Source: Yuukianura sp. NJ FZ-2021 (lineage: Eukaryota). Taken from it: a stretch of 64,000 nt of DNA. Position numbers and translations under genes: made by a program. The notes under the pieces were generated by a model. It did not search any database. It was not told where the DNA came from and was given only the letters and a program-made list of their open reading frames with translations. Location of the stretch: positions 9,300,001 to 9,364,000 of the forward strand of contig CM102286.1 in the NCBI GenBank assembly GCA_046563655.1, in the 5' to 3' direction. Shown here piece after piece: positions 13,701 to 64,000 of this stretch; position 1 is the first letter of the stretch, and the number at the start of each line of letters is the position of its first letter.

Positions 13701-16700
13701 TTAGTGAGAAATTTAAGTTTTAATTATTTTTTCTTGTAATTACCAACGACTTTTGGATCAAGACCGGCTTCGAATTTAAAAATCAAACACAAGTATTTGC
13801 TCTGAAATAAATATTTTCTTCAGCCGTGGCTACAGGGGTGGTGAATTGCGCTGAAGCTTGGTAATTTAGAAGAATTTTTATCGTAATTAGCAACGGGTTC
13901 TTCAATATCGGACATAGTTCAAAAAGTTCAAACAGAAACAGTTGCTCTCAAAACGATGAGATAATTTTTGTTCACTGTTAGGGGGTTGTGGATTCGGATG
14001 AACCTTGAAGGTTAGTCCATAAAATTTTTAAAAGGTTAGTGAGAAATTTAAGTTTTAATTATTTTTTCTTGTAATTACCAACGACCTTTGGATCAAGACC
14101 GGCTTCGAATTTAAAAATCAAACACAAGTATTTGCTCTGAAATAAATATTTTCTTCAGCCGTGGCTACAGTGGGTGGTGAATTGCGCTGAAGCTTGGTAA
14201 TTTAGAAGAATTTTTATCGTAATTAGCAACGGGTTCTTCAATATCGGACATAGTTCAAAAAGTTCAAACAGAAACAGTTGCTCTCAAAACGATGAGATAA
14301 TTTTTGTTCACTGTGAGGGGGTCGTGGATTCGGATGAACCTTGAAGGTTAGTTCATAAAATATCTAAAAGGTTAGTGAGAAATTTAAGTTTTAATTTTTT
14401 CTTGTAATTACCAACGACCTTTGCATCAAGACCGGCTTCGAATTTAAAAATCAAACACAAGTATTTCCCCTGAAATAAATATTTTCTTCAGCTGTTGCTA
14501 CAGGGGGTGGTGCATTGCGATGAAGCTTGTTAATTCAGAAGAATTTTTATCGTAATTAGCAACGGGTACTTCAATATCGGACGTAGATGAAAAAGTTTTA
14601 ACAGAAATAGTTGCTCTCAAAACGATGAGATAATTTTTGTTCACTGTGAGGGGGTTGTGGATTCGGATGAACCTTGAAGGTTAGTCCATAAAATATCTAA
14701 AAGGTTAGTGAGAAATTTAAGTTTTAATTTTTTTCTTGTAATTACCAACGACCTTTGCATCAAGACCGGCTTCGAATTTAAAAATCAAACACAAGTATTT
14801 CCCCTGAAATAAATATTTTCTTCAGCTGTTGCTACAGGGGGTGGTGAATTGCGATGAAGCCTGGTAATTCAGAAGAATTTTTATCGTAAATAGCAACGCG
14901 TTCTTCAATATCGGACATAGTTCAAAAAGTTCAAACAGAAACAGTTGCTCTCACAACGATGAGATAATTTTTGTTCACTGTGAGAGGGTTGTGGATTCGG
15001 ATGAACCTTGAAGGTTAGTCCATAAAATTTTTAAAAGCTTAGTGAGAAATTTAAGTTCTAATTATTTTTTCTTGTAATTACCAACGACCTTTGCATCAAG
15101 ACCGGCTTCGAATTTAAAAATCAAACACAAGTATTTGCTCTGAAATAAATATTTTCTTCAGCTGTCGCTACAGGGGGTGGTGCAATGCGATGAAGCTTGA
15201 TAGTTTAGTAGAATTTTTTTCGTAATTAGCAACGGGTTCTTCAATATCGGACATAGTTCAAAAAGTTCAAACAGAAACAGTTGCTCTCAAAACGATGAGA
15301 TAATTTTTGTTCACTGTGAGGGGGTCGTGGATTCGGATGAACCTTGAAGGTTAGTCCATAAAATATCTAAAAGGTTAGTGAGAAATTTAAGTTTTAATTT
15401 TTTTTCTTGTAATTACCAACGACCTTTGCATCAAGACCGGCTTCGAATTTAAAAATCAAACACAAGTATTTCCCCTGAAATAAATATTTTCTTCAGCTGT
15501 TGCTACAGGGGTGGTGCATTGCGATGAAGCTTGTTAATTCAGAAGAATTTTTATCGTAATTAGCAAAGGGTACTTCAATATCGGACGTAGATGAAAAAGT
15601 TTTAACAGAAATAGTTGCTCTCAAAACGATGAGATAATTTTTGTTCACTGTGAGGGGGTTGTGGATTCGGATGAACCTTGAAGGTTAGTCCATAAAATAT
15701 CTAAAAGGTTAGTGAGAAATTTAAGTTTTAATTTTTTTCTTGTAATTACCAACGACCTTTGCATCAAGACCGGCTTCGAATTTAAAAATCAAACACAAGT
15801 ATTTCCCCTGAAATAAATATTTTCTTCAGCTGTTGCTACAGGGGGTGGTGAATTGCGATGAAGCCTGGTAATTCAGAAGAATTTTTATCGTAAATAGCAA
15901 CGCGTTCTTCAATATCGGACATAGTTCAAAAAGTTCAAACAGAAACAGTTGCTCTCACAACGATGAGATAATTTTTGTTCACTGTGAGAGGGTTGTGGAT
16001 TCGGATGAACCTTGAAGGTTAGTCCATAAAATTTTTAAAAGCTTAGTGAGAAATTTAAGTTCTAATTATTTTTTCTTGTAATTACCAACGACCTTTGGAT
16101 CAAGACCGGCTTCGAATTTAAAAATCAAACACAAGTATTTGCTCTGAAATAAATATTTTCTTCAGCCGTGGCTACAGGGGGTGGTGAATTGCGCTGAAGC
16201 TTGGTAATTTATAAGAATTTTTATCGTAATTAGCAACGGGTTCTTCAATATCGGACATAGTTCAAAAAGTTCAAACAGAAACAGTTGCTCTCAAAACGAT
16301 GAGATAATTTTTGTTCACTGTGAGGGGGTCGTGGATTCGGATGAACCTTGAAGGTTAGTCCATAAAATATCTAAAAGGTTAGTGAGAAATTTAAGTTTTA
16401 ATTTTTTTTCTTGTAATTACCAACGACCTTTGCATCAAGACCGGCTTCGAATTTAAAAATCAAACACAAGTATTTCCCCTGAAATAAATATTTTCTTCAG
16501 CTGTTGCTACAGGGGGTGGTGCATTGCGATGAAGCTTGTTAATTTAGAAGAATTTTTATCGTAATTAGCAACGGGTACTTCAATATCGGACGTAGATGAA
16601 AAAGTTTTAACAGAAATAGTTGCTCTCAAAACGATGAGATAATTTTTGTTCACTGTGAGGGGGTTGTGGATTCGGATGAACCTTGAAGGTTAGTCCATAA

Positions 16701-17073
16701 AATATCTAAAAGGTTAGTGAGAAATTTAAGTTTTAATTTTTTTTCTTGTAATTACCAACGACCTTTGCATCAAGACCGGCTTCGAATTTAAAAATCAAAC
16801 ACAAGTATTTCCCCTAAAATAAATATTTTCTTCAGCTGTTGCTACAGGGGTGGTGCATTGCGATGAAGCTTGTTAATTTAGAAGAATTTTTATCGTAATT
16901 AGCAACGGGTACTTCAATATCGGACGTAGATGAAAAAGTTTTAACAGAAATAGTTGCTCTCAAAACGATGAGATACTTTTTGTTCACTGTGAGGGGGTTG
17001 TGGATTCGGATGAACCTTGAAGGTTAGTCCATAAAATTTTTAAAAGGTTAGTGAGAAATTTAAGTTTTAATTA
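10713..17073. repeat. Satellite B block (~19 monomers)
   Basis: Continuous 334-337-bp tandem repeat; variants carry TTCGGATGAACC and GTTCACTGTG. Confidence 0.97.
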
Positions 17074-18292
17074 TTATAATAGCGAAGCTATTATTATAGA
17101 AGACGTCTGTGTCCGTCCGTCCGTCCGTCCGTCCGTCCGTCCGTCTGCCTGTCCGGATTAATTATCTCAGAACCTACTGGTCCGATTTGATTCCGGTTTT
17201 CACCAGTGACCATGTCATGACCCGGGCTTGGTCACTATTGAATATGACCCTCGGGTGTCAACTCCTTCCGGGTCAAAGGTCAAGGTCAACCGGTTTCATC
17301 CCTGGTAACCCGGAAAATGACTTCTACAAAAGTTGTTCATCTCATTGAGACTAACAACTTTTGTGTGCAATGTGTGACCCTAGGTCACCTCCTTCCGGGT
17401 CAAAATTGATTTCAAAGGTCATTTGTAATGCAAGTGTGGGTACAAAAAACTCTGCTTGTGAGACTGGAAAGGCAATTGGCATGGGACTTGATTCTCTGCT
17501 TAGCAAAAAATCTATTACGCAGTTGACATATACACTCATCTGTCATCAGTCACCTGTCACTCTTCACATGTCACACTTCACCTGTCACTCTTCACATGTC
17601 ACACCCGTCATTAACTTCACATGTCACCTGTCACGTGGCGGGTGTCACCTGTCCCGTACCGGCGGGTGTCACCTGTCACGGTTCACCTTTCACGTGCCGG
17701 GTGTCACCTGTCACGCTTCACCTTTCACATTTCACCTGTCACCTGTCCCGTACCGGCGGGTGTCACCTGTCACGCTTCACCTTTCACGTGCCGGGTGTCA
17801 CCTGTCACGCTTCACCTTTCACATTTCACCTGTCACCTGTCCCGTACCGGCGGGTGTCACCTGTCACGCTTCACCTTTCACGTGCCGGGTGTCACCTGTC
17901 ACGCTTCACCTTTCACACTTCACCTGTCACCTGTCACGCTTCACCTTTCACACTTCACCTGTCACCTGTCACGTGCCGGGTGTCACCTGTCACGCCTCAC
18001 CTGTCACCTGGCACGTGCCGGGTGTCACCTGTCACGCCTCAGCTGTCACGTTTCACCTGTGAACATCCGCTAGGGGGGGCGAGCGGAAAAGTGGGGGGGA
18101 CACCCCCACTCCCCCCGGGGGGGGAGGAAGTGGCGGAACACACCCCCGCGCTCCCTGGGGTGCGGAGCAAAAAAGTGGGGGGAACACCCCCACTCCTGGC
18201 GGGCGGGAAAGTGGGGGGAAAACCCCCACCCCCTGGGGGGCAACCCCTTATTTCTGAGCTATTATCAGTATGCGCGGTTTACAACCGGTTTA
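17074..18292 (+). mobile_element. HINE-like element E1' (duplicate of E1)
   Basis: Near-identical to 6734-7954 at offset 10340, at the same position in the satellite monomer. Confidence 0.8.
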
Positions 18293-19525
18293 TTATAATA
18301 GCGAAGCTATTATTATAGAAGACGTCTGTCTGTCTGTCTGTCTGTCCGTCTGTCTGTCTGTCCAGATTAATTATCTCAGAAACAACTGGCCCGATTTGGT
18401 TCCGGTTTTCACCTATCAATACCCCATGACCCGCACTAGGTCACTATTGAATATGACCCCCGGGTGTCAACTCCTTCCGGGTCAAAGGTCAAGGTCAACC
18501 GGTTTCATCCCCGGTAACATGGAAAATGACCTCTACAAAAGTTGTTCACCTCATCGAGAGCAACAACTTTTGTGTGAAATGTATCACCCTAGGTGAACTC
18601 CTTCCGGGTCAAAATCGATTTAAAAGGTCATTTGTAATGCAAGTGTGGATAAAAAAAAACTCTGCTTGTGAGACTGGAAAGGCAATTGGCATGGGACTTG
18701 ATTCTCTGCTTAGCAAAAAATCCATTACGCAGTTGACTAACACACTCAACTGTCACCTGTCACACTTCATCTGTCACTTCACCTGTCACGTGCCGGGTGT
18801 CACATGTCATGCGCCGGATGCCACCTGTCACGTGCCGGGTGTCACCTGTCACGGCTGTCACGCGCCGGGTGTCACCTCTCACCTGTCACTTTCCGGGTGT
18901 CACCTCTCACCTGTCACTTTCCGGGTGTCACCTCTCACCTGTCACTTTCCGGGTGTCACCTCTCACCTGTCACTTTCCAGGTGTCACCTGTCACTTGCCG
19001 GGTGTCAGCTGTCACCTGTCACTTTCCGGGTGTCACCTGTCTCCTGTCACGTCCCGGGTATCATCTGTCACATGCCGGGTGTCACCTGTCACGTGCCGCG
19101 TGTCACCTGTCACCCTCAAGTGTCACTTGTCGGGTGTCACCTGTCACCTGTCACGCCTCAGCTGTCACGTCTCACCTGCCAACACCCCCTGGAAGGCGGG
19201 AAAGTGGAGGGAACACACCCCCACTACCCCGGGGGGGGGGCGGGAAAGTGGGGGGAACACACCCCCACTACCCCGGGGGGGCGGGAAAGTGGGGGGAACA
19301 CACCCCCACTACCCCGGGGGGGGGCGGGAAAGTGGGGGGAACACACCCCCACGCCTCCTGGGGTGCGGAGCAAAAAAGCGGGAAAACACACCCCCACTCC
19401 CCCGGCGGGGCGGGAAAGTTGGGGGAACACACCTTCGCTCACCTTTGGAGGGGGGGCTTCAGTGTGATTTACAAAACTTTCCTATTCTTCGCTATTATCA
19501 TTAAGGGCGGTTTACAACCGGTTTA
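18293..19525 (+). mobile_element. HINE-like element E2' (duplicate of E2)
   Basis: The 5' part is near-identical to E2; part of the 3' region is more like E3. Confidence 0.8.
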
Positions 19526-21067
19526 TTATAATAGCGAAGCTATTATTATAGAAGACGTCTGTCTGTCTGTCTGTCTGTCCGTCTGTCTGTCTGTCCAGAT
19601 TAATTATCTCAGAAACAACTGGCCCGATTTGGTTCCGGTTTTCACCTATCAATACCCCATGACCCGGACTAGGTCACTATTGAATATGACCCCCGGGTGT
19701 CAACTCCTTCCGGGTCAAAGGTCAAGGTCAACCGGTTTTATCCCCGGTAACATGCAAGATGGCCTCTACAAAAGTTGTTCATCTCATTGAGACCAACAAC
19801 TTTTGTGTGGAATGTGTGACCCTAGGTCACCTGTTTCCGGGTCAAAATTGATTTTAAAGGTCATTTGTAATGCAAGTGTGGGTACAAAAAACTCTGCTTG
19901 TGAGACTGGAAAGGCAATTGGCATGGGAGTTGATTCTCTGCTTAGCAAAAAATCCATTACGCAGTTGACTAACACACTCAACTGTCACCTGTCACACTTC
20001 ATCTGTCACTTCACCTGTCACGTGCCGGGTGTCACCTGTCACGGCTGTCACGCGCCGGGTGTCACCTGTCACGGCTGTCACTTGCAGGGTGTCAGTTGTC
20101 ACCTGTCACTCACGTGCCGGGTGTCACGTGTCACTTGCCGGGTGAGAGTTGTCAACTGTCACTCACGTGTCGGGTGTCACCTGTCACGTGCTGGGTGTCA
20201 GCTGTCACCTGTCACTTTCCGGGTGTCACCTCTCACCTGTCACTTTCCGGGTGTCACCTGTCACTTTCCGGGTGTTACCTCTCACCTGTCACTTTCCGGG
20301 TGTCACCTGTCACTTGCCGGGTGTCAGCTGTCACCTGTCACTTTCCGGGTGTCACCTCTCACCTGTCACTTTCCGGGTGTCACCTCTCACCTGTCATTTT
20401 CCGGGTGTCACCTGTCACTTGCCGGGTGTCAGCTGTCAACTGTCACTTTCCGGGTGTCACCTGTCACCTGTCACGTGCAGGCATCGTCTGTCACATGCCG
20501 GGTGTCACCTGTCATACCGGGTGTCACCTGTCACCTGTCACGTGCCGCGTGTCACCTGTCACCCTCAAGTGTCACTTGCCGGGTGTCACCTGTCACCTGT
20601 CACGTGCCGGTATCGTCTGTCACATGCCGGGTGTCACCTATCATACCGGGTGTCACCTGTCACCTGTCACGTGCCGCGTGTCACCTGTCACCCTCAAGTG
20701 TCACTTGCCGGGTGTCACCTGTCACTTGTCACGCCTCAGCTGTCACGTCTCACCTGCCAACACCCCCTGGAAGGCGGGAAAGTGGGGGGAGCACAACCCC
20801 ACTACCCCGGGGGGGGGGGGGGGCGGGAGAGTGGGGGGAACACACCCCCACTACCCCGGGGGGGGCGGGAAAGTGGGGGGAACACACACCCACGCCTCCT
20901 GGGGTGCGGAGCAAAAAAGCGGGAAAACACACCCCCACTCCCCCGGCGGGGCGGAAAAGTTGGGGGAACACACCCCCGCTCACCTTTGGAGGGGGGAGCT
21001 TCAGTGTGATTTACAAAACTTTCCTATTCTTCGCTATTATCATTATGGGCGGTTTACAACCGGTTTA
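19526..21067 (+). mobile_element. HINE-like element E3' (duplicate of E3)
   Basis: Same termini as E3; the arrangement of minisatellite units differs. Confidence 0.8.
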
Positions 21068-51000: not shown

Positions 51001-53111
51001 TGAAATAAATAGTTTCTTCCGCTGACGCTACAAGGGGTGGCGAATTGCGATGAAGCTTGGCAATTTAGAAGAATTTTTATCGTAATTAGCAACGGGTACT
51101 TCAATATCGGACGTAGATGAAAAAGTTCAAACAGAAATAGTTGCTCTCAAAACGATGTGATAATTTTTGTTAAATGTGAGGGGGTTGTGGATTGGGATAA
51201 AGCTTGAAGGATAGTCCATAAAATATTTAAAAGGTTAGTGAGAAATTTCAGTTTTAATTATTTTTTCTTGTAATTACCAACGACCTTTGCATCAAGACCG
51301 GCTTGGAATTTAAAAATCAAACACAAGTTTTTGCTCTGAAATAAATAGTTTCTTCAGCTGACGCTACAGGGGTGGTGCATTTCGATGAAGCTTGGTAATT
51401 TAGAAAAATTTTTATCGTAATTAGCAACGGATTCTTCAATACCAGACATAGATCAAAAATTTTCAACAGAAATAGTTGCTCTCCAAACGATGTGATAATT
51501 TTTGTTAAATGTGAGGGGTTGTGGATTGGGATGAAGCTTGAAGGATAGTCCATAAAATATTTAAAAGGTTAGTGAGAAATTTCAGTTTTAATTATTTTTT
51601 CTTGTAATTACCAACGACCTTTGCATCAAGACCGGCTTGGAATTTAAAAATCACACACAAGTTTTTGCTCTGAAATAAATAGTTTCTTCCGCTGACGCTA
51701 CAGGGGTGGCGAATTGCGATGAAGCTTGGCAATTTAGAAGAATTTTTATCGTAATTAGCAACGGGTACTTCAATATCGGACGTAGATGAAAAAGTTCAAA
51801 CAGAAATAGTTGCTCTCAAAACGATGTGATAATTTTTGTTAAATGTGAGGGGGTTGTGGATTGGGATGAAGCTTGAAGGATAGTCCATAAAATATTTAAA
51901 AGGTTAGTGAGAAATTTCAGTTTTAATTATTTTTTCTTGTAATTACCAACGACCTTTGCATCAAGACCGGCTTGGAATTTAAAAATCACACACAAGTTTT
52001 TGCTCTGAAATAAATAGTTTCTTCCGCTGACGCTACAGGGGGTGGCGAATTGCGATGAAGCTTGGCAATTTAGAAGAATTTTTATCGTAATTAGCAACGG
52101 GTACTTCAATATCGGACGTAGATGAAAAAGTTCAAACAGAAATAGTTGCTCTCAAAACGATGTGATAATTTTTGTTAAATGTGAGGGGGTTGTAGATTGG
52201 GATAAAGCTTGAAGGATAGTCCATAAAATATTTAAAAGGTTAGTGAGAAATTTCAGTTTTAATTATTTTTTCTTGTAATTACCAACGACCTTTGCATCAA
52301 GACCGGCTTGGAATTTAAAAATCAAACACAAGTTTTTGCTCTGAAATAAATAGTTTCTTCAGCTGACGCTACAGGGGGTGGTGCATTTCGATGAAGCTTG
52401 GTAATTTAGAAAAATTTTTATCGTAATTAGCAACGGATTCTTCAATACCAGACATAGATCAAAAATTTTCAACAGAAATAGTTGCTCTCCAAACGATGTG
52501 ATAATTTTTGTTAAATGTGAGGGGGTTGTGGATTGGGATGAAGCTTGAAGGATAGTCCATAAAATATTTAAAATGTTAGTGAGAAATTTCAGTTTTAATT
52601 ATTTTTTCTTGTAATTACCAACGACCTTTGCATCAAGACCGGCTTGGAATTTAAAAATCACACACAAGTTTTTGCTCTGAAATAAATAGTTTCTTCCGCT
52701 GACGCTACAGGGGGTGGTGCATTTCGATGAAGCTTGGTAATTTAGAAAAATTTTTATCGTAATTAGCAACGGATTCTTCAATACCAGACATAGATCAAAA
52801 ATTTTCAACAGAAATAGTTGCTCTCAAAACGATGTGATAATTTTTGTTAAATGTGAGGGGTTGTGGATTGGGATGAAGCTTGAAGGATAGTCCATAAAAT
52901 ATTTAAAAGGTTAGTGAGAAATTTCAGTTTTAATTATTTTTTCTTGTAATTACCAACGACCTTTGAATCAAGACCGGCTTGGAATTTAAAAATCACACAC
53001 AAGTTTTTGCTCTGAAATAAATAGTTTCTTCCGCTGACGCTACAGGGGGTGGCGAATTGCGATGAAGCTTGGCAATTTAGAAGAGTTTTTATCGTAATTA
53101 GCAACGGGTAC
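21068..53111. repeat. Satellite B main array (~95 monomers, ~32 kb)
   Basis: Uninterrupted 334-337-bp tandem repeat with region-specific variants and local higher-order periodicity. Confidence 0.98.
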
Positions 53112-53238
53112 TGTTAGGGTAGTGGCAACCATTATGACATTATGACGCAATGTCAATATAGGTCAGCGTACTGGTATAAATAAAAGCTTCCGAGGGTAAT
53201 ACCCTCGGCATTCTTGAGCCCCAAAACCATCCGTAACA
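53112..53238 (+). repeat. 5' LTR (127 bp)
   Basis: Starts TGTTA, ends TAACA, and is a direct repeat of 62050-62168. Contains TATAAATAAAA (53175-53185) and the hairpin CCGAGGGT-AAT-ACCCTCGG (53190-53208). Confidence 0.96.
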
Positions 53239-53239
53239 A

Positions 53240-53251
53240 TGGTAGCAGAGG
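53240..53251 (+). promoter_or_regulatory. Primer binding site complementary to initiator tRNA-Met
   Basis: TGGTAGCAGAGG lies 1 nt after the LTR and is the reverse complement of the metazoan tRNA-iMet 3' end (...CCUCUGCUACCA, recalled from memory). Confidence 0.88.
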
Positions 53252-53320
53252 GATGAACTCACGACACTTAAATAAAAAATACAGTTGAAAGGAATTTTAT
53301 CTAATCGTATTTACGTTTAC

Positions 53321-54640
53321 ATGAGTAAAAATACAGAACGCACCCGCGAATCCAAACGACTAAGAAATTTAGATCCAAGTCCTCTCGTTGAAACCCCTCC
53401 ACGCGTTCCTAAGAAGAAAAAAGTTGTCGTTAATATTCATGCACCTTTGGAGGGTACGCCTAAAACAAGAGTATCCACGGCCTCGAATTCACTAGAATTT
53501 AGGGATTATAGAATACAAGACGAATCTGACGAATCTGATCCCGACGAAGTCGAAATTAATGACCCATCTGAAAGTTCTTACGACACAACAGAAGAAACAA
53601 TAATTAACAGATCACCAACGAGCACGGCAAGTATTATCCAGCCTAGCCTATTTATACAGCTAAGAAAAGACAACGCAAATAACGAACCCATCACAATGAA
53701 CGCCAATGCGCAAGTAGTCCTGCTCCACGAAAAAATGCCGAAATACTCTCAGACACTGTTAAGTAAACAGGAACTAGAAATATTCCTAAACTTATACGAA
53801 ATTTGGTTCAAACAGAAAGCATTGACAGAACCTCAGGCCAAAATGCAACTCCAAATGGCCATTCCTTTAAAAGTAGCTCAACAGTGGTTCGCAATTAATA
53901 AAGACATGATAACTGATAACACTGTTAATTGGGAAACTTATAAAACTGCCTTCCAACGAGATTGTCCAACGGAAAATAGTGACGAAGACCTATCATTTGC
54001 AGAAATAATTTCGAAAACACAAGGAAAAAACGAAAAAGCGTCGTTGTTTATACAAAAAATCAGATATCTTTTTGGTCAGAATTGGGGAAATTACCCCGAA
54101 AGAGAAATAGTCAAGGGAATGGTTCACCAACTTAATTTAAACACACGCAGATACATCGAATGCCGAGGAGTTCCAGATACTTACGGCGATCTTATGAGGC
54201 AAATTCAACAATACGAGTCGAAAGGCGGTGCAAAGGATATTGACGAAATTACAGTTAAAACAGAAATTCCAGTGAACTACCTTGAACAAACTAGACTCGC
54301 GGAAATTGAAAACTCCCTCAAAAATATAAGCATTTTGTTAACGCCAGCTAATAGAAACCCAAGGATCCCTCACGAGCAAAGGAATTACCAGAATCAAAGG
54401 CAGGGCACCCAGTATATCCAGAGAGATGGGAAGTTTAAATTTCGGAATAATGGCCAACTGAGCCAACATGTCAACTCCCGGGAACGAGAAACCCGATCCT
54501 GCAACTACTGTGGCCGGGTCGGTCACCTGCAAGCAAGGTGTTTTTTAGCACAAAGGCACCAACAAAATCAATTCATGCGACAAGATACACGGGATCGGAA
54601 CAATTACCAATATAACAGGAGCCGGGGAAACTTCCAATAG
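53321..54640 (+). CDS. gag: Gag polyprotein (439 aa from first ATG)
   Basis: First ORF after the PBS; the track start at 53285 is TTG and the first ATG is 53321. Has a CCHC knuckle CNYCGRVGHLQARC (54500-54541), a Q/N/R-rich C-terminus and a basic PKKKKV motif near the N-terminus. Confidence 0.92.
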   Translation: MSKNTERTRESKRLRNLDPSPLVETPPRVPKKKKVVVNIHAPLEGTPKTRVSTASNSLEFRDYRIQDESDESDPDEVEINDPSESSYDTTEETIINRSPTSTASIIQPSLFIQLRKDNANNEPITMNANAQVVLLHEKMPKYSQTLLSKQELEIFLNLYEIWFKQKALTEPQAKMQLQMAIPLKVAQQWFAINKDMITDNTVNWETYKTAFQRDCPTENSDEDLSFAEIISKTQGKNEKASLFIQKIRYLFGQNWGNYPEREIVKGMVHQLNLNTRRYIECRGVPDTYGDLMRQIQQYESKGGAKDIDEITVKTEIPVNYLEQTRLAEIENSLKNISILLTPANRNPRIPHEQRNYQNQRQGTQYIQRDGKFKFRNNGQLSQHVNSRERETRSCNYCGRVGHLQARCFLAQRHQQNQFMRQDTRDRNNYQYNRSRGNFQ

Positions 54641-54662
54641 CGGATCAAGGACACCGATCCGC
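54625..54662 (+). promoter_or_regulatory. -1 programmed ribosomal frameshift signal (gag to pol)
   Basis: Slippery heptamer G GGA AAC (54625-54631) is in the gag frame, followed by an 8-nt spacer and the stem GCGGATC-9 nt-GATCCGC (54640-54662). Pol is in the -1 frame and is open from here. Confidence 0.85.
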
Positions 54663-57600
54663 GGAAAAAATTATCGTCCAAATCAATCTATCAAACACCA
54701 GCACAAAAATTGTTGAAGGAAAAATTAAAAACAAAATTGTTAACATCACAATCGATACGGGAGCAGGTAGAGGCCTGATAAGAGAGGATGCTGTAATGGA
54801 TTGCGAACGTCAACCTAACAACAAATTTAAATTACAAACACTGAATAATGAGGAAATCAGGGACACCGGCTTAGCAATCGTGCCTTTAGAGTTAGGAAAA
54901 TTAAAAATTAATCGCGAATTTATCATAGTAAAGAATTGTCCAACGGAGCTGCTTTTGGGCGATGATATATTGGAAGACTTCGGATTTGACATTTCATACA
55001 ACCAAAAATGCCTCCAATCTCCCGAGGCTGGGAGAATTCCATTTATAAACATACAAAGAAAAGAACAAATACTCTCGTTAACAGTTGTTAATAGCATAAA
55101 AATAAACAAAATTGATATCAATCCAAAACTCACGGACGAAAATAAAGGCAAACTTTACGACATTATAAGAAAAAACTCAAAATCATTCTCTTGGGACGGC
55201 GAATTGGGACGGACTAGGAAAATTCAGTTTAGTATAGAGACTGGAAACGCTGAACCAATTCGACATAGACCCTACCCAACATCAGAGAGCCAAAGAAAGC
55301 TTATACAAGAACACGTCAAAGAAATGCTCGACAAAGACATAATTGAACCGAGCGACTCCCCATGGGCAAGCCCATGCGTACTGGTCGACAAAAAACCAGA
55401 TAAAGACGGAAAAATTAAAAAACGATTTTGTGTTGACTTCAGATCATTGAATAACGTAACCAAAAAATCCTCGTATCCCTTACCCAGAATCGAAGATATA
55501 CTCACGCGGTTACGAGGAGCACGATACTTCTCATCATTGGATTTAATTTCAGGCTTCTGGCAAGTGGAAATAAAACCAGAGGATCGCGAAAAAACGGCTT
55601 TTATCACGGCGGATGGGTTATATCAGTTCAAAGTTATGCCGTTTGGACTATGTAATAGTCCACCACAATTCTCGAAACTAATGGACATCGTGCTGGCAGA
55701 ACTGAAGAACCAAACTTGTATTTGCTACATAGATGATATTATAATTTACTCGCACACAATAGAAGAACATTTACTCAAGCTTGATAAAATCCTACATCGA
55801 GTGGGTCGAGAAAACTTGTTAATACAACCAACCAAATGCCGGCTTTTGTATGAAGAAATTAGCATTCTGGGCTACACTGTCTCGGAGGGAGGAATTAAAT
55901 TAGATAACTCAATGATTCAAGGATTGAAACAACTTCCAGTACCAAGAACAAAGAAACAGCTACAAACAGTATTAGGGTTTTTTTCATATTTTCGTAAATT
56001 CATTCATAATTATGCTAAAATTATGTCTCCACTCACGAAGCTATTAACCAAAGAGGCAAAGTTCGAATGGAACGAGGAGCAACAAAATACTTTCACGAAA
56101 ATGAAAAATTTATTACTCAATGCCCCAATCCTCACTTTATTTAATCCGGAACGGGAAACAATATTAAAAACGGATGCAAGCACAATAGGATTAGGAGCTT
56201 GTTTAGTTCAAATTGTGAATGGAATCGAAAAACCAATTGCCTTCGCCAGCAAATCCATCACAAAAGCACAGAAGAACTGGACGACGACAGAACTAGAACT
56301 TTTGAGTATAATCTACGGTATTAAAAAATTCGGGACATTCCTCAAAGGCAAGGAATTCAAAATTCACACGGATCATCATGCCTTATGCTGGATTCTAAAA
56401 GCCAGGAGAGAGGAGATGCCCCCAAAACTAGTTAGAATGGTTGAGTTCCTAACATCTTATCAAATTGAAGGAATTTATCATATCGCCGGTAAAAGACACT
56501 TACCCGACTGTCTCTCGAGATTTCCAATTGAACTTCCAAAGTTAAAAAAACCCATGGATGAAGATATAGAAGAACTAGAGGATGTACCAATCTTGCTTGC
56601 AGCTCCAGTATTATTAACTGAAGCCCAGAAGCAGGATCCAGAAATAACGCAAATAAAGAAATACTTAGAATCAGGGGAAGTCTTTACGAAAAAATCCAAC
56701 TATAAAATACAGCAAGATATTCTATATTATTGGAACGCGAAATTGAGCCGCTACACAATTGTAGTTCCACGCCGCCTCATTTCCACGATTTTAGCCGAAT
56801 GTCATGACGGACCCCTATCAGCACATTTGGGCTACACAAAGACAAATTTTAGAATCCAATCACGTTATTACTGGAAAGGAATGACCTCCGACATTAAAAA
56901 ATATATTAAAACATGTGAAGATTGCCAAAAACGGAAAATACCAAGAATAAAACCGGCTGGACTCATGCAGAAGATGCATTTTGACAAAAATTTGTTCACT
57001 AAAATCCAAATTGATGTAATGGGACCCCTAAATCGAAGTACCAAAGGAAACAGATACGTGGTGACCGCCATTTGTTATGTTAGTAAATGGATGGAATCCC
57101 GAGCAATGAGAGAAGCCACAGCAGAAAACATTGCGAGCTTTATCTTAGAACAGATAATCTGTAGGCATGGGTGCCCAAAAGAAATTCAAAGCGACAGGGG
57201 CGGTATTTTCACTAGCGAAATAATGAAGCACATTTCAGCAAAACTTGGAATCAATCACAGGTTTAGCACAGCATACCACCCGGAATCACAGGGATTGGTC
57301 GAAAGGAGTCACTCCACGTTAGTAACATGCCTCGCTATATACACGCAAAAAAATCCTAAAGAATGGGACAATTTTCTACCACATATCACGTTCGCAATAA
57401 ACACGGCAATTCAAGAAACAACAAAATTCACTCCGTTCTTTTTAGTTTACGGAAGAGAGGCAATTATGCCAGTAGAAGCAGAATTGGTGGCCGAATCAGA
57501 ATTTACTTCAGTAGAAGAAATGATTAAAAATATACAAAAAGCTAGAATACTAGCAGGTGAGCGAATTGAGGAGGCACAAGAAAAATACGCGGAATACTAC

Positions 57601-58107
57601 AACAAAAACAGACGAGAAGCTTCGTTCAAACCTGGGGACAAGGTGCTGATTCGAAAATTTATGAAAAGGAAAGGAATTTCAGTCAAGTTACTCCATTACT
57701 ATTTTGGCCCATACGAAGTCATACAAAAATTATCGGACGTTAACTACATAGTTGAAGCAAGGAAAGGAAAGAAGACATTCCGGGAAACGGTTCACATAGA
57801 TAAAATGAAATCATATTTTGAACGGACCAGGGAAGACGTAAGGGTAGAAGGTCAACAATTGAAATCGGAAAACAAGGTTCACCCGGAAGAAAGAGAAGGA
57901 AAAAACCACCCATTACACGAGAACAGCAACGGCGACCTAAAGTCGAAAGAAGAAGAAGGGGACCAGAAGAAGGGAGAAATAAAAATATCATCACAGGGGG
58001 AGCTAGGGTCACCCAAAAATAACTCAACCAACATCAGTAGCGAGGTAAGGCAATTTGGGAGGTACAACCTGAGAGCCAGGGGTAAAAAAGTAAAGTATAG
58101 ATATTAG
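54628..58107 (+). CDS. pol: Pol: aspartic protease, reverse transcriptase, RNase H, integrase with GPY/F motif
   Basis: The frame is open upstream of the track ATG (54796) and includes protease IDTGA (DTG 54754-54762). RT: RFCVDFR, YPLPRI, MPFGL, YIDD (55726-55737). RNase H: TDAS, ELE, TDH. IN: HHCC (H..H..CEDC), D-D-E (IDVMGP, SDRG, VERSH), FGPYEV. No internal stops. Confidence 0.97.
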   Translation, partial: KLPIADQGHRSAEKIIVQINLSNTSTKIVEGKIKNKIVNITIDTGAGRGLIREDAVMDCERQPNNKFKLQTLNNEEIRDTGLAIVPLELGKLKINREFIIVKNCPTELLLGDDILEDFGFDISYNQKCLQSPEAGRIPFINIQRKEQILSLTVVNSIKINKIDINPKLTDENKGKLYDIIRKNSKSFSWDGELGRTRKIQFSIETGNAEPIRHRPYPTSESQRKLIQEHVKEMLDKDIIEPSDSPWASPCVLVDKKPDKDGKIKKRFCVDFRSLNNVTKKSSYPLPRIEDILTRLRGARYFSSLDLISGFWQVEIKPEDREKTAFITADGLYQFKVMPFGLCNSPPQFSKLMDIVLAELKNQTCICYIDDIIIYSHTIEEHLLKLDKILHRVGRENLLIQPTKCRLLYEEISILGYTVSEGGIKLDNSMIQGLKQLPVPRTKKQLQTVLGFFSYFRKFIHNYAKIMSPLTKLLTKEAKFEWNEEQQNTFTKMKNLLLNAPILTLFNPERETILKTDASTIGLGACLVQIVNGIEKPIAFASKSITKAQKNWTTTELELLSIIYGIKKFGTFLKGKEFKIHTDHHALCWILKARREEMPPKLVRMVEFLTSYQIEGIYHIAGKRHLPDCLSRFPIELPKLKKPMDEDIEELEDVPILLAAPVLLTEAQKQDPEITQIKKYLESGEVFTKKSNYKIQQDILYYWNAKLSRYTIVVPRRLISTILAECHDGPLSAHLGYTKTNFRIQSRYYWKGMTSDIKKYIKTCEDCQKRKIPRIKPAGLMQKMHFDKNLFTKIQIDVMGPLNRSTKGNRYVVTAICYVSKWMESRAMREATAENIASFILEQIICRHGCPKEIQSDRGGIFTSEIMKHISAKLGINHRFSTAYHPESQGLVERSHSTLVTCLAIYTQKNPKEWDNFLPHITFAINTAIQETTKFTPFFLVYGREAIMPVEAELVAESEFTSVEEMIKNIQKARILAGERIEEAQEKYAEYYNKNRREASFKPGDKVLIRKFMKRKGISVKLLHYYFGPYEVIQKLSDVNYIVEARKGKKTFRETVHIDKMKSYFERTREDVRVEGQQLKSENKVHPEEREGKNHPLHENSNGDLKSKEEEGDQKKGEIKISSQGELGSPKNNSTNISSEVRQFGRYNLRARGKKVKYRY

Positions 58108-58154
58108 GCACCAAAATTAATTAGGACGGCGGCCGCCAAAAGTTAGGTATAAAA

Positions 58155-60314
58155 ATGACAACAGGTACGAATAGGTATTCATTCAACAAAAAAGCCTTAG
58201 CCATGGCTCCAAACAAGCAGAGCAGAAAACAACAGAAGGAAAAACAGAAGAGAAATTCATTGTATTCGCATCACGAAAACACAGAAAACATAAAACCAAA
58301 CCTACTACTAAATGTAGTCATTATCCTTATTCTGGCAAAACTTCTCTTCGGACTAGCAATTGCGACAGAAATTCCGACAAGGGTTGTCAGAGGCATCTAC
58401 GAAGAAGAAATTCCAGCAGTAACCTATGAAGGCACAATACCATTAATTTACGAAGCCCAATTACCTCAACTCACATATGCCACCATAATAGATTCACGAT
58501 ATCAGAACAATCCTACAGTGCAGACATTGAAAGATGTGATTGCACAAGTTCAAAGAATATTTAATATGGAATCACTCACAGGAATTCGAAAATGGAAAAA
58601 AATTGATAATGCCCTGCGCCAAAAACGGAGCCTAGAATTTGTGGGCAACTTTGCAAGTTGGTGTTGCAACGTGGCTACAGTTAAAAACATTGACGAAATC
58701 CATACGACGGAAGACAAAATTGCCAAGTTTGTTGTAAATGTGGAAGAAAAACTACTTCACGAAAATCAGGATCTCCTCAAAGTAACCAAGATTGTTAACA
58801 CTTACTCTGACTCACTAAATATATCCATAGAAAGACTAGAGGCCCATTGGGGCAATGAATTTTCAAAATTACTCGACGTGAACGACGAATTAGAACAGGC
58901 AACGAACGGAAATAGTCAGGCAATTGTCAACCTAGCTAAGGCCTGGCACGAGTCAATAATCGCAACTATCTGGACAAAAGTATATTCTGATTGTCAACAA
59001 AATCATCTGCCTAAATTAGTGGTAGACCCGCGCACATTATCCAGGGATCTGGAGAAACTAAAAAATGTTTTAAAAACGGATAACCGGACACTCGTCATTA
59101 ACGAAGACATAATAGGAAGATACTATCACCTCCCCATCAGCACGTGTTCATTCTCTAATGAACGACTAATAATTAATTTAAAAGTCCCTATACGATCAAC
59201 TGAGTCAAACCTAAAAATTTTCGAAGTTACGCCCATACCGTTTCAACATGTACGGGATGTATGTACGCTGAAGCTCGAATCTGAAATAATTATCAAAAAC
59301 AATAAGAAATACATATACATGACGGGAAAAGATACGAAAAATTGCAACGTAAAAGTAGATGGACTATGCTTCATTCCTCGTTTCCATAAAAATTCAATTC
59401 ACACATCATCATGTCTTCAGCACCTTTTCGGTAACGAAACAACAATGGAAAATCTACAACAATACTGCCCCCTAACTTGTAAACAAATGGGACAAAAAGA
59501 CGTAATTATCACCCAACTGTCAACGAACCGATTTACTATAATCAACAATAAGGAAGAGCTAATATTAAAATGTGGCAACCAATCTCATGCAGTAATAACA
59601 CCTCAAGGTCATTCCGGCTCAGTAGAAGTAACAGTACCTTGTGGGTGTGCCCTAATTGGACCAGAAACTTTAATTTCAACAGCATATCCATGTGAGCATG
59701 GCATAAAAATGTCAGTTCATAATATAATTCCAGCAGCATGGTCAAAACTAAAAACAGCACCCTTAAACGAAAAACTTCTTTTCCACAACAAAACGGAAAT
59801 CTTCAATGAACATTGGCACCTGGAAATTCCACATATTAACATCTCGTTACCTACACTAAAGAAAAATGATGATAAAGTAAATTACTGGACGGAGGATCAC
59901 AAAATTGAATACTTCAATGGACTAAGTCGAATAACCACCCATTTGTCTTTTACATCTACGCTTTGGCTAGTCATCATCACGTTATGGCTTCTATACCTCA
60001 CGTGGAGATTGGGAATCCTAAGTCCATTGACCATGGCAATGACCTTCCCACTTGGAGCAAGAGGAGATGTGGTTGACGTAGTATTAGAGAGCATAGAAAA
60101 TTCACTTCTATTGGAAATTGTAATTATTTTGATTATAATTTTTATTACGCTTCGATCACTGAGAAATTTAATTGCTGTCGCAACAAAAATTGCAATAAGG
60201 GATTCACGTCATAATAAGGAAGTAAAATTCGATGGAGAAGCAGTGACAATCAACATAGTTGGAAGCCAAAACACGGATGAAGAAACTGAGGAAGAGGCAG
60301 AAATGAATTCCTAA
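58155..60314 (+). CDS. env: Envelope glycoprotein, class I fusion type (errantivirus env / baculovirus F-like architecture), 719 aa
   Basis: Hydrophobic signal LLLNVVIILILAKLLFGLAIA. Furin site RQKR (58617-58628) is followed by a fusion-peptide-like SLEFVGNFASWCCNVA, a heptad-like region, a Cys-rich ectodomain with N-glycosylation sequons and C-terminal TM segments. It lies directly after pol. Confidence 0.85.
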   Translation: MTTGTNRYSFNKKALAMAPNKQSRKQQKEKQKRNSLYSHHENTENIKPNLLLNVVIILILAKLLFGLAIATEIPTRVVRGIYEEEIPAVTYEGTIPLIYEAQLPQLTYATIIDSRYQNNPTVQTLKDVIAQVQRIFNMESLTGIRKWKKIDNALRQKRSLEFVGNFASWCCNVATVKNIDEIHTTEDKIAKFVVNVEEKLLHENQDLLKVTKIVNTYSDSLNISIERLEAHWGNEFSKLLDVNDELEQATNGNSQAIVNLAKAWHESIIATIWTKVYSDCQQNHLPKLVVDPRTLSRDLEKLKNVLKTDNRTLVINEDIIGRYYHLPISTCSFSNERLIINLKVPIRSTESNLKIFEVTPIPFQHVRDVCTLKLESEIIIKNNKKYIYMTGKDTKNCNVKVDGLCFIPRFHKNSIHTSSCLQHLFGNETTMENLQQYCPLTCKQMGQKDVIITQLSTNRFTIINNKEELILKCGNQSHAVITPQGHSGSVEVTVPCGCALIGPETLISTAYPCEHGIKMSVHNIIPAAWSKLKTAPLNEKLLFHNKTEIFNEHWHLEIPHINISLPTLKKNDDKVNYWTEDHKIEYFNGLSRITTHLSFTSTLWLVIITLWLLYLTWRLGILSPLTMAMTFPLGARGDVVDVVLESIENSLLLEIVIILIIIFITLRSLRNLIAVATKIAIRDSRHNKEVKFDGEAVTINIVGSQNTDEETEEEAEMNS

Positions 60315-60553
60315 AAAATATTGTCACTCTACTTTCACAACATCAAAATAAAAATTGCAACAAAATAAAATTAACAAAATTTAATCAACTCTTCCAGCTG
60401 CAAATCCCTTAAATAGACAGCCAAAAACAGCTAAGAATTCATTTACCTCTTCGCTTTCAATGGCTGAGAAAACTCACGATGTCCCAAAATTCTAACCACA
60501 CAAAAAAAATATTTCTTCAACTTAACCACGAATTAGAACAAAGCTAACGAAAA

Positions 60554-60913
60554 TTGTACGGCTTCCTGTTTTCTTTAATTATCAACGCACAAAATTTTGA
60601 TAACGAAGAAAACATCAGTCAATCTGATAATTTACAAGAACCGCTTAACTTATCCATTGCAGGCACCCCACCGCCCTCAACTTCTACGGGACATATCTCT
60701 ACGAACCCTGAGCTTGACTCATGCGTTAGGAAATGTTGTGTATGCAGCACCACTAGCAGCCGATATTGGCGAAATGTCACAAGCGGTAACCCACTTTGTA
60801 ATGCATGTTACCAATACCAGAAAAGACATGGGGTGCCAAGGCCACCTAGACTCTATAATAGCCCCATAATTCTAAGAAGAAGACGCCAGTATCCGTATTA
60901 TTTCGAAAATTAA
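60554..60913 (+). CDS. Accessory ORF A: GATA-type zinc finger protein with PLNLS motif (start uncertain; possibly spliced or disrupted)
   Basis: CCVC-STTSSRYWRNVTSGNPL-CNAC-YQYQKRHGVPRP fits C-x2-C-x17-C-x2-C with the conserved WR, LCNAC and G-x-x-RP (60734-60808). PLNLS is at 60641-60655 and there is a basic RRRR tail. The open frame has no ATG; an in-frame ATG at 60479 is separated from it by a single TAA at 60545-60547. Confidence 0.75.
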   Translation: MYGFLFSLIINAQNFDNEENISQSDNLQEPLNLSIAGTPPPSTSTGHISTNPELDSCVRKCCVCSTTSSRYWRNVTSGNPLCNACYQYQKRHGVPRPPRLYNSPIILRRRRQYPYYFEN

Positions 60914-61019
60914 ACTCTAAGTTAATAACTTACCATCATTCGGTGTCAGAAATCAGCACTCTGCACAATTTTTTTACTTTCACTTTCGAAATTATTTTTT
61001 TCCAAAGTACACTCACGAA

Positions 61020-61658
61020 ATGTCTTACTCGCGTCCACAGACGGAACAACAGGCGGGAGCAGACCAGTTCACCAGGGAATACTGGGATATTTACAAAACA
61101 ATTGAAACAGGACAACGAAACCTGTTTCGCAAAATTCTTTTCCATATTCATCCACAAGCAAGAAGAACTCCCGGACAATTCCACAATTACAACCCTCATT
61201 ACAATCGCACAGCAAATACAGTTCATTCACGACCCACCGAAATAATTCGACCACCTCACGAATGCACAACAAACATTTCCGAACAGTACTATCCACAACC
61301 GTCAAGTCAAAACCCAACCGCAAGGGATTATAAGAAAATTGAAAGTCCCAGACATAACCAGCAAGGCTGGCCAGCGGAAGCTGCTTCATCTTCATCACGA
61401 GAGATAATCATCCCACCCACCAAAGACGGAGAGAGTAAATCACCCTTTAAAAGACAAGCGGAAGAACGAGTGAGTACGGAAGACTCAAAAAAGGGGGCAA
61501 TGTTGGAGGAGATATTCGGAAAGGCATTAAAAAAGAAGAAGAAGAAGAAAAAGAAAACAAAGCACCCACGATTGTCACCAGCCGAAGTTAAACTCTCCGA
61601 GTCAGATAGTGAATCATCATCCTCTTCGTCTTCTTCTTCTTCGGAGAAATCAGCATAA
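61020..61658 (+). CDS. Accessory ORF B: 212-aa protein of unknown function with poly-Lys NLS-like tract and Ser/acidic tail
   Basis: ATG-initiated 639-bp ORF in AT-rich sequence, in the element's sense. The N-terminal segment (FTREYWDIYKTIETGQRNLFRKILFHI) looks ordered; the C-terminus has KKKKKKKKTK and SESDSESSSSSSSSSSEKSA. Preceded by a pyrimidine tract plus AG at 61006-61007. Confidence 0.6.
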   Translation: MSYSRPQTEQQAGADQFTREYWDIYKTIETGQRNLFRKILFHIHPQARRTPGQFHNYNPHYNRTANTVHSRPTEIIRPPHECTTNISEQYYPQPSSQNPTARDYKKIESPRHNQQGWPAEAASSSSREIIIPPTKDGESKSPFKRQAEERVSTEDSKKGAMLEEIFGKALKKKKKKKKKTKHPRLSPAEVKLSESDSESSSSSSSSSSEKSA

Positions 61659-62015
61659 AAGGAATTTTTTTTTCGGATTCACGCAAGTTTTACATTAAGC
61701 TTAAGTTTTCAGTTTCCTTTCATTTCATTTTTTTTAAAAATATTACCATTTAACAGTCGTAAACATAGGATAGTGAAATTTAAACTTTTGTCTATAGTCT
61801 ATCATTCAACTTTTACTTCTCATTTCTCAATCTTTTAGAATAGCATTTTCAACTAGCGTTTAGCTCCTTCACTTCTACCTCTATGAAATAACAGAAAACA
61901 GTTAGTAAGCAAAACCCAGAAAAAGCAAAACAAAAGTAACAACAAAAACAAAATAGAAAATTTTTTTGTTCACTCTGTAAACTTTCTTAGTACATTGTAA
62001 ATTTTAGATAAACTT

Positions 62016-62049
62016 ATGATCGGGACGATCATTAGCTTTTAGGTAGGTG
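62016..62049 (+). promoter_or_regulatory. Pre-PPT hairpin and atypical short polypurine tract
   Basis: ATGATCG-GGA-CGATCAT stem-loop (62016-62032), then TTTT-AGGTAGGTG directly before the 3' LTR. Confidence 0.5.
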
Positions 62050-62168
62050 TGTTAGGGTAGTGGTAACCATTATGACGCAATGTCAATGTAGGTCAGAATA
62101 CTGGTATAAATAAAAGCTTCCGAGGGTAATACCCTCGGCATTCTTGAGCCCCAAAACCATCCGTAACA
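62050..62168 (+). repeat. 3' LTR (119 bp)
   Basis: TGTTA...TAACA direct repeat of the 5' LTR, followed by the GTAC TSD. Confidence 0.96.
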
Positions 62169-64000
62169 GTACTTCAATATCGGACGTAGATGAAAAAGTT
62201 CAAACAGAAATAGTTGCTCTCAAAACGATGTGATAATTTTTGTTAAATGTGAGGGGGTTGTGGATTGGGATGAAGCTTGAAGGATAGTCCATAAAATATT
62301 TAAAAGGTTAGTGAGAAATTTAACTTTTAATTATTTTTTCTTGTAATTACCAACGACCTTTGCATCAAGACCGGCTTTGAATTTAAAAATCAAACACAAG
62401 TTTTTGCTCTGAAATAAATAGTTTCTTCAGCTGACGCTACAGGGGGTGGCGAATTGCGATGAAGCTTGGCAATTTAGAAGAATTTTTATCGTAATTAGCA
62501 ACGGGTACTTCAATATCGGACGTAGATGAAAAAGTTCAAACAGAAATAGTTGCTCTCAAAACGATGTGATAATTTTTGTTAAATGTGAGGGGGTTGTGGA
62601 TTGGGATGAAGCTTGAAGGATAGTCCATAAAATATTTAAAAGGTTAGTGAGAAATTTCAGTTTTAATTATTTTTTCTTGTAATTACCAACGACCTTTGCA
62701 TCAAGACCGGCTTGGAATTTAAAAATCACACACAAGTTTTTGCTCTGAAATAAATAGTTTCTTCCGCTGACGCTACAGGGGGTGGCGAATTGCGATGAAG
62801 CTTGGCAATTTAGAAGAATTTTTATCGTAATTAGCAACGGGTACTTCAATATCGGACGTAGATGAAAAAGTTCAAACAGAAATAGTTGCTCTCAAAACGA
62901 TGTGATAATTTTTGTTAAATGTGAGGGGGTTGTGGATTGGGATAAAGCTTGAAGGATAGTCCATAAAATATTTAAAAGGTTAGTGAGAAATTTCAGTTTT
63001 AATTATTTTTTCTTGTAATTACCAACGACCTTTGCATCAAGACCGGCTTGGAATTTAAAAATCAAACACAAGTTTTTGCTCTGAAATAAATAGTTTCTTC
63101 AGCTGACGCTACAGGGGTGGTGCATTTCGATGAAGCTTGGTAATTTAGAAAAATTTTATCGTAATTAGCAACGGATTCTTCAATACCAGACATAGATCAA
63201 AAATTTTCAACAGAAATAGTTGCTCTCAAAACGATGTGATAATTTTTGTTAAATGTGAGGGGGTTGTGGATTGGGATGAAGCTTGAAGGACAGTCCATAA
63301 AATATTTAAAAGGTTAGTGAGAAATTTAACTTTTAATTATTTTTTTCTTGTAATTACCAACGACCTTTGCATCAAGACCGGCTTTGAATTTAAAAATCAA
63401 ACACAAGTTTTTGCTCTGAAATAAATAGTTTCTTCAGCTGACGCTACAGGGGGTGGCGAATTGCGATGAAGCTTGGCAATTTAGAAGAATTTTTATCGTA
63501 ATTAGCAACGGGTACTTCAATATCGGACGTAGATGAAAAAGTTCAAACAGAAATAGTTGCTCTCAAAACGATGTGATAATTTTTGTTAAATGTGAGGGGG
63601 TTGTGGATTGGGATGAAGCTTGAAGGATAGTCCATAAAATATTTAAAAGGTTAGTGAGAAATTTCAGTTTTAATTATTTTTTCTTGTAATTACCAACGAC
63701 CTTTGCATCAAGACCGGCTTTGAATTTAAAAATCAAACACAAGTTTTTGCTCTGAAATAAATAGTTTCTTCAGCTGACGCTACAGGGGGTGGCGAATTGC
63801 GATGAAGCTTGGCAATTTAGAAGAATTTTTATCGTAATTAGCAACGGGTACTTCAATATCGGACGTAGATGAAAAAGTTCAAACAGAAATAGTTGCTCTC
63901 AAAACGATGTGATAATTTTTGTTAAATGTGAGGGGGTTGTGGATTGGGATGAAGCTTGAAGGATAGTCCATAAAATATTTAAAAGGTTAGTGAGAAATTT
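62169..64000. repeat. Satellite B resumes in register (~5.5 monomers, runs off the right edge)
   Basis: GTACTTCAATATCGGACGTAG continues the monomer interrupted at 53111. Confidence 0.97.

Follow-up and report, generated by a model that had tools for sequence, protein, structure and literature searches.

Can a retrovirus-like element outside the vertebrates carry regulatory genes of its own behind its envelope gene? The question is raised by a long terminal repeat (LTR) retroelement of 9,057 bp, located at positions 53112-62168 of a 64,000-nt stretch of Yuukianura sp. NJ FZ-2021 DNA (assembly GCA_046563655.1, contig CM102286.1, 9,300,001-9,364,000, forward strand). This whole stretch is referred to as the window, its numbering is used throughout, and all element features lie on its plus strand. 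The insertion is an apparently intact env-bearing LTR retroelement of the Ty3/gypsy (Metaviridae) type, in which 1,735 nt (60315-62049) separate the env stop codon from the 3' LTR. An initial annotation of the window had described intact gag, pol and env followed by 1.7 kb of additional sequence inside the LTR and target-site duplication (TSD) boundaries. This anatomy held: all three frames are open, and the segment is enclosed by LTRs at 53112-53238 and 62050-62168 with GTAC on both sides. The preferred reading, given a rough probability of 0.45, is that the post-env segment is a regular constituent of an element family, that its second open reading frame (ORF B) is, or was until very recently, a real element protein, and that the GATA-type zinc finger in its first frame (ORF A) is host-derived cargo, either spliced in or decaying. 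This evidence falls far short of demonstrating a complex retrovirus-like lineage.

Coding frames behind env

ORF B (61020-61658) encodes 212 amino acids (aa) from its own ATG, within an open frame of 245 codons, and is open beyond chance with an element-like codon bias. Over the whole region, a frame of 245 codons was reached in none of 2000 mononucleotide shuffles and in 1 of 2000 Markov shuffles; in local shuffles of 738 nt, 1 of 5000 reached 212 codons and none 245, the maximum being 215. Under a codon model trained on the gag, pol and env of the element, ORF B scores +0.08 in frame versus -0.15 and -0.18, a value toward the bottom of the 0.077-0.20 seen in genuine in-frame 636-nt windows. 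It also has the A-rich plus-strand composition of the element. A structural model with a predicted local distance difference test (pLDDT) score of 58 comprises a helical hairpin (aa 10-43), a disordered middle, a helix bearing nine consecutive lysines (aa 142-178), and a serine/acid tail. Searches of Pfam and NCBIfam with ORF B returned no family. The 390 nt past ORF B are T-rich and non-coding.

ORF A (60548-60913) is a stop-to-stop frame of 121 codons that contains no ATG. A short ATG-started frame of 22 codons precedes it in the same reading frame (60479-60547), closed by TAA at 60545-60547. The length of ORF A is within chance expectation (95th percentile of shuffles, 112-141 codons), so the case for its reality rests on a domain match. 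This match is a GATA-type zinc finger with the spacing CX2CX17CX2C, followed by a basic tail (60734-60886), which scores 30.8 bits against Pfam PF00320 (gathering cutoff 26.8; E = 2.2e-7). In a phmmer search of the PDB, ORF A residues 62-113 align with the C-finger and basic tail of GATA-4 (39.0 bits, independent E-value 6e-9), followed by GATA-3 and then GATA-1, and 16 of the 17 sequences at E<=1 are GATA-type. All four cysteines, the tryptophan, the CNAC motif and the HGVPRP-basic tail are retained. Of the features in the initial annotation, ORF B with its ATG and the finger itself are confirmed, while ORF A is a stop-to-stop frame only.

Comparison with animal GATA factors places likeness and difference side by side. 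The finger spacing, tryptophan, CNAC, HGVPRP and basic tail are common to both, and 52 residues align with GATA-4. In contrast to these factors, ORF A has a single finger, without an N-finger, flanking GATA-factor sequence or a start codon, and several conserved positions are changed. In the six frames of the window no second finger or N-finger remnant was found, a single chance pattern being the only one besides the GATA finger. Literature on a GATA finger in an LTR retroelement, judged by titles and the openings of abstracts, yielded nothing relevant.

A splice acceptor had been proposed ahead of each frame, and both sequences are present: TCTTCCAG ends at 60397, and a T-rich tract with AAG ends at 61007. 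An AAG is a poor acceptor, and RNA spliced at 60397 meets TAA at 60410 and at 60545 in the ORF A frame, while the first ATGs past this point (60462 and 60479) open frames of 11 and 22 codons; the acceptor at 60397 thus cannot give the finger a start codon. Crude consensus scans place the best candidate branch point, pyrimidine tract and CAG acceptor within the ORF A frame itself (60642-60662). The best-scoring candidate acceptor, CTTAAC..TTGCAG followed by G, would cut at 60661-60662, such that the exon starts at 60663, on ORF A codon position 2. Near the 5' end of the element only two plausible donors are present (53324/53325 and 53453/53454), both in phase 1 relative to the gag ATG. These candidate donors are in phase with an exon starting at 60663 and would give an in-frame fusion of the gag start to ORF A. 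Three other routes to ORF A, namely splicing from the env ATG, read-through from env and an ORF A-ORF B fusion, were rejected, as neither the frames nor the candidate site sequences fit.

Other copies and relatives

The segment could be viewed outside the window in contigs assembled from three DNA runs, all of one sample, from which the window itself probably derives. Listed contigs that cover gag, pol and env are near-identical to the window, with 0-11 other letters per 364-1781 nt. The post-env segment is also present in other, diverged copies. One diverged contig (60048-60381) spans the env stop with 18 other letters and 14 gap letters, a second (60383-61942) spans ORF A, the spacer and ORF B with 87 other letters and 16 gap letters, and a third diverged version (60853-61235/61295) has 46-55 other letters and 11-13 gap letters. 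On its left, the shared stretch begins within env coding sequence (in-frame score +0.26 versus -0.71 and -0.37), and the env-tail deletion listed in the diverged contig is 6 nt long and keeps the frame. Env tail and segment are joined across approximately 6-15% divergence between copies. The segment is therefore not a capture unique to this copy, which speaks against the concern, voiced with the initial annotation, that it might be a one-off captured fragment, and the joint divergence of env tail and segment makes the insertion of a foreign repeat less likely. Word depth over 60153-61396 exceeded that over gag-pol-env in run X1, not in run X2, and run X3 left most of gag-pol-env uncovered; since gaps in cover and depth of contigs measure neither copy number nor absence, they were not used as evidence.

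A search of metagenome contigs with pol identified 462 relatives, of which the best 80 were examined. Among these, the closest is contig L001, which is 66% identical over pol aa 3-484. Its gag is 51% identical, gag similarity being found in this locus only among the 80, and the contig ends inside pol. The first 130 nt of L001 hold a short LTR-like stretch ending in ..CCTAACA, with a TGG primer site directly behind it; the clade that holds L001 and the element described here may be characterized by very short LTRs. Approximately 8 of the 80 pol relatives reach at least 1.5 kb past pol, and the downstream ORFs checked in two of them (L004 and L005) are gag genes of neighboring elements.

Three further observations concern the contigs of the same sample. 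One diverged version carries an insertion of at least approximately 0.5 kb with 16-nt inverted ends between 60381 and 60383, which looks like a small DNA transposon or miniature inverted-repeat transposable element nested at approximately 60382 in an old copy. This same version, which begins at 60048, is preceded by 21 nt, the first 16 of which correspond to the LTR start (TGTTAGGGTAGTGG), with unrelated sequence before them. Finally, a 7,029-nt contig matches the window only at 55319-55410, 56788-56826 and 57364-57470, which are conserved pieces of reverse transcriptase (RT) and integrase (IN); these short matches indicate that the sample also contains a second element of this general kind, far more diverged. 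Within the rest of the window, blastn and tblastn found no other copy of the element.

Readings of the segment

Under the preferred reading, the post-env segment would be a standing module of the element family and not an accident of one copy. ORF B would be an element-adapted frame for a small, mostly disordered, lysine-rich protein with an acid/serine tail, which may serve as a nuclear accessory protein translated from a subgenomic RNA. A host GATA-factor gene is the most likely source of the single C-type finger and its basic tail. The finger would be made only if an upstream exon were spliced in, for which 60662/60663 is the best candidate junction, and would otherwise be a decaying relic. 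Expression, splicing, a nuclear role and host origin are what we infer, and the element is best described as an env-carrying Ty3/gypsy element with extra, probably partly host-derived ORFs.

Transducing and complex vertebrate retroviruses offer a comparable arrangement, with extra coding sequence between env and the 3' LTR that is reached by subgenomic splicing. In transducing retroviruses this sequence is of host origin, as for v-src in Rous sarcoma virus, and the putative GATA insert resembles such host-derived inserts in position. However, these viruses are Retroviridae, whereas the element here is of the Ty3/gypsy type. In the GyDB description, src is listed in Table 1 as an accessory gene, as are tas/bet and tax/rex (PMC2238898). 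The gain of additional ORFs 3' of pol by retrovirus-like LTR elements is likewise documented in bdelloid rotifers, whose elements capture varied ORF3s (PMC5408684). The rotifer ORF3s differ in that they replace env, encoding for instance a GDSL lipase or a DEDDy exonuclease, and do not place a DNA-binding finger behind it.

Several findings weigh against the preferred reading. The diverged contigs come from one sample, probably that of the window, and so are not independent support. ORF A has stops on both sides and no ATG, its codon-model score barely separates it from the other frames (0.04 versus -0.07 and -0.67), and strongly conserved GATA positions, read off the PDB alignment, appear substituted. 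The candidate donors score poorly (1.84 and -3.27 under a home-made matrix), and their phase match to the acceptor has a 1-in-3 chance of arising at random. The element has no excess of WGATAR sites (30 versus 29.5 +/- 5.4) and none occurs in the LTR, which leaves self-activation via GATA sites without support. Disruption of the frames in other copies, named at the outset as a way in which the proposal could fail, is seen in ORF B, where two other copies carry non-triplet deletions (-5 at 61252 and -2 at 61263). For the ORF A frame, the net effect of the listed indels (-1, -1 and +2 at 60883-60895) is zero, and they are located past the finger and its tail. These indels are taken from the listed rows, beyond which lay 12 further indel rows and 302 substitution rows. 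Homologs of the ORF A flanks, ORF B and env were also lacking in each collection searched. For ORF B, none of 147 word-sharing protein candidates reached E<=0.001, no relative was found among 1.84 billion protein representatives, and none of 372 pattern matches in metagenome DNA was confirmed. For ORF A, a protein search restricted to lengths of 66-212 aa gave no candidate with shared words. None of the best 80 of the 462 pol relatives resembled env or either post-env frame. Lastly, this copy of the element is not brand new, as its 5' and 3' LTRs differ by 4 mismatches in 119 aligned positions and one 8-nt indel.

The most serious alternative, although an unlikely one, is that the segment is transduced or accreted non-functional DNA amounting to a long 3' untranslated region, with the finger a dead host exon and ORF B a relic of captured host or other coding sequence that by chance is still open. 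The missing start and weak coding signal of ORF A, the broken ORF B of two other copies, the failure to find an ORF B homolog in the searches above and the T-rich non-coding stretch behind ORF B would all be expected of such cargo. However, chance is very unlikely to preserve an open frame of 245 codons that resembles the element in codon usage, and the segment is still attached to env across copies that have diverged by 6-15%. Even as inert cargo, the locus would still cleanly illustrate how a host exon can be captured behind env by an element that is otherwise intact.

The opposite extreme is the complex lineage with nuclear regulators favored by the initial annotation. The layout of gag-pol-env plus segment on which this "complex retrovirus" reading was built stands. 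ORF A and ORF B would be regulatory genes maintained by the element and expressed from spliced subgenomic RNAs, the former a GATA-site regulator or decoy and the latter a nuclear RNA/export or chromatin factor. Beyond the anatomy, this account can draw on the retained cysteines, tryptophan, CNAC and HGVPRP-basic tail of the finger, on the in-phase pair of candidate donor and acceptor, and on the helical hairpin and basic helix predicted for ORF B. The missing start codon of ORF A and the frameshifting ORF B deletions stand against it, as do the unenriched GATA sites and the failure of protein and metagenome searches to find the ORFs conserved outside this sample. We therefore consider it improbable, more so than inert cargo.

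The idea of a complex element is nevertheless not without precedent, given Cer1 of Caenorhabditis elegans. As described for it (PMC10309623), this Ty3/gypsy-type element encodes CERV, a lineage-restricted nuclear accessory protein translated from a spliced mRNA and sharing its N-terminus with gag; its gag-frame first exons provide a model for how ORF A might obtain a start. CERV differs from the frames described here in that it is a 517-aa protein of a five-exon mRNA, in which exons 1-3 use the gag frame and exon 4 its own frame, and in that it is not a post-env cassette and has H, M and G domains without a GATA finger. For errantiviruses, accessory genes had not been shown according to a 2012 review (PMC3383448).

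Stated in full, the proposal that an animal env-bearing Ty3/gypsy element has turned complex, with spliced RNAs giving a GATA-site-binding protein that starts at the gag initiation codon and a small basic/acidic, RNA-handling nuclear protein from ORF B, is doubtful. In such a lineage, the protein with the captured host C-finger could serve as an activator or, in the tissue expressing the element, as a decoy opposing the GATA factors of the host. Complex retroviruses are set apart from simple ones by the hallmark of accessory regulators, and, if the proposal is true, a DNA-binding accessory regulator would for the first time be described in a retrovirus-like element from outside the vertebrates. 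Were the cassette expressed and conserved, retrovirus-like elements outside vertebrates would be seen to gain host transcription-factor parts independently, and the locus would provide a tractable case of a transduced host exon becoming a viral regulator.

It is very unlikely that the stretch of approximately 60048-61942 derives from another repeat or non-autonomous element, recombined or inserted here and with the additional versions as its copies: the shared stretch does end in an A-rich run at 61942, one contig has the 21 nt with an LTR-like start and an unrelated flank before it, and its versions are far more diverged than the listed gag-pol-env contigs, but the left boundary falls within env coding sequence that has a strong in-frame score and is open throughout, the LTRs, polypurine tract and TSD are regular, and the contig ends are assembly breakpoints and not proven element ends.

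The element and its satellite setting

Near its C-terminus, the 439-aa product of the gag frame (53321-54640) has a CX2CX4HX4C knuckle, which was recognized by eye and matches Pfam zf-CCHC at E = 0.2 only. The pol frame (54616-58107; ATG at 54796) shares its first 25 nt with the end of gag, in the -1 frame, and has a protease (PR) motif, DTGAG, upstream of RT (RVT_1, aa 202-362, E = 1.9e-33), RNase H (RH; aa 425-555, matched by two models, with RT_RNaseH_2 at E = 8.9e-32) and integrase (aa 657-1007; Integrase_H2C2, E = 9.8e-23, and rve, E = 1.7e-11), which is the PR-RT-RH-IN order of Ty3/gypsy elements.

The third frame (58155-60314) encodes 719 aa with the features of a membrane glycoprotein, as in errantiviruses. 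These comprise an N-terminal hydrophobic anchor (aa 45-75), a single RQKR at aa 155 followed by a hydrophobic stretch, 14 cysteines, six N-glycosylation sequons, and hydrophobic segments at aa 597-623 and 639-677. The putative env assignment is founded on these features and nothing else. No Pfam family matched even at E<=10, the best match in the PDB had an E-value of 3.4, and none of 8000 scored candidates in a protein database search reached E<=0.001. Neither this frame nor pol found a match in viral contigs. An AlphaFold2 single-sequence model was unusable (pLDDT 38).

Env-carrying Ty3/gypsy elements with F-type or gB-type env have been described across Metazoa (Chary & Hayashi, eLife 2026, PMC13524379; main text). 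The element here resembles them in its LTR-gag-pol-env-LTR order and its PR-RT-RH-IN pol, and those with F-type env also in the signal/anchor of the third ORF, the furin-like RxKR with its hydrophobic stretch, and the C-terminal membrane segment. In contrast, its env matched neither type in the sequence tests run, and beyond env it has an extra 1.7 kb that contains two coding frames. The terms "accessory", "zinc finger" and "GATA" do not occur in the main text of that paper.

Direct LTRs with TG..CA ends and a short TSD, as in Ty3/gypsy elements, delimit the insertion. The 5' LTR (53112-53238) is 127 nt long and contains a TATAAATA box, and the 3' LTR (62050-62168) is 119 nt long, both as defined by self-BLAST and alignment. 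An 8-nt unit, ATTATGAC, is tandemly duplicated in the 5' LTR (53141-53156), and this duplication is absent from the 3' LTR. A candidate primer-binding site beginning with TGG lies one base past the 5' LTR (53240-53257), and a short, purine-containing candidate polypurine tract (..AGGTAGGTG; 62036-62049) adjoins the 3' LTR. The left GTAC duplication (53108-53111) recurs directly after the 3' LTR (62169-62172), where it forms the opening bases of the resumed satellite. A search of Rfam over 53000-62300 gave no match at E<=0.1.

The element is the lone interruption of the largest 336-bp satellite array, which makes up the last 43 kb of the window (21065-53109 and 62169-64000). Empty-site contigs from public DNA runs join 53107/53109 straight to 62172, with the satellite monomers uninterrupted. 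Satellite sequence accounts for nearly the whole window (1-5586, 5587-6732, 10710-17075, 21065-53109 and 62169-64000), in arrays of a 288-bp unit (19 copies) and of 334-336-bp units (up to 95 copies with 94-96% matches). Two near-identical, complex G/C-rich minisatellite blocks (7196-10386 and 17536-20999) lie approximately 10.3 kb apart. They are built of units of 7, 28, 49, 77, 94 and 129 nt on TCACCTG and GGGTGTCACC motifs, together with a G-run unit, and their pairing suggests a higher-order repeat that takes in a 335-bp satellite array.

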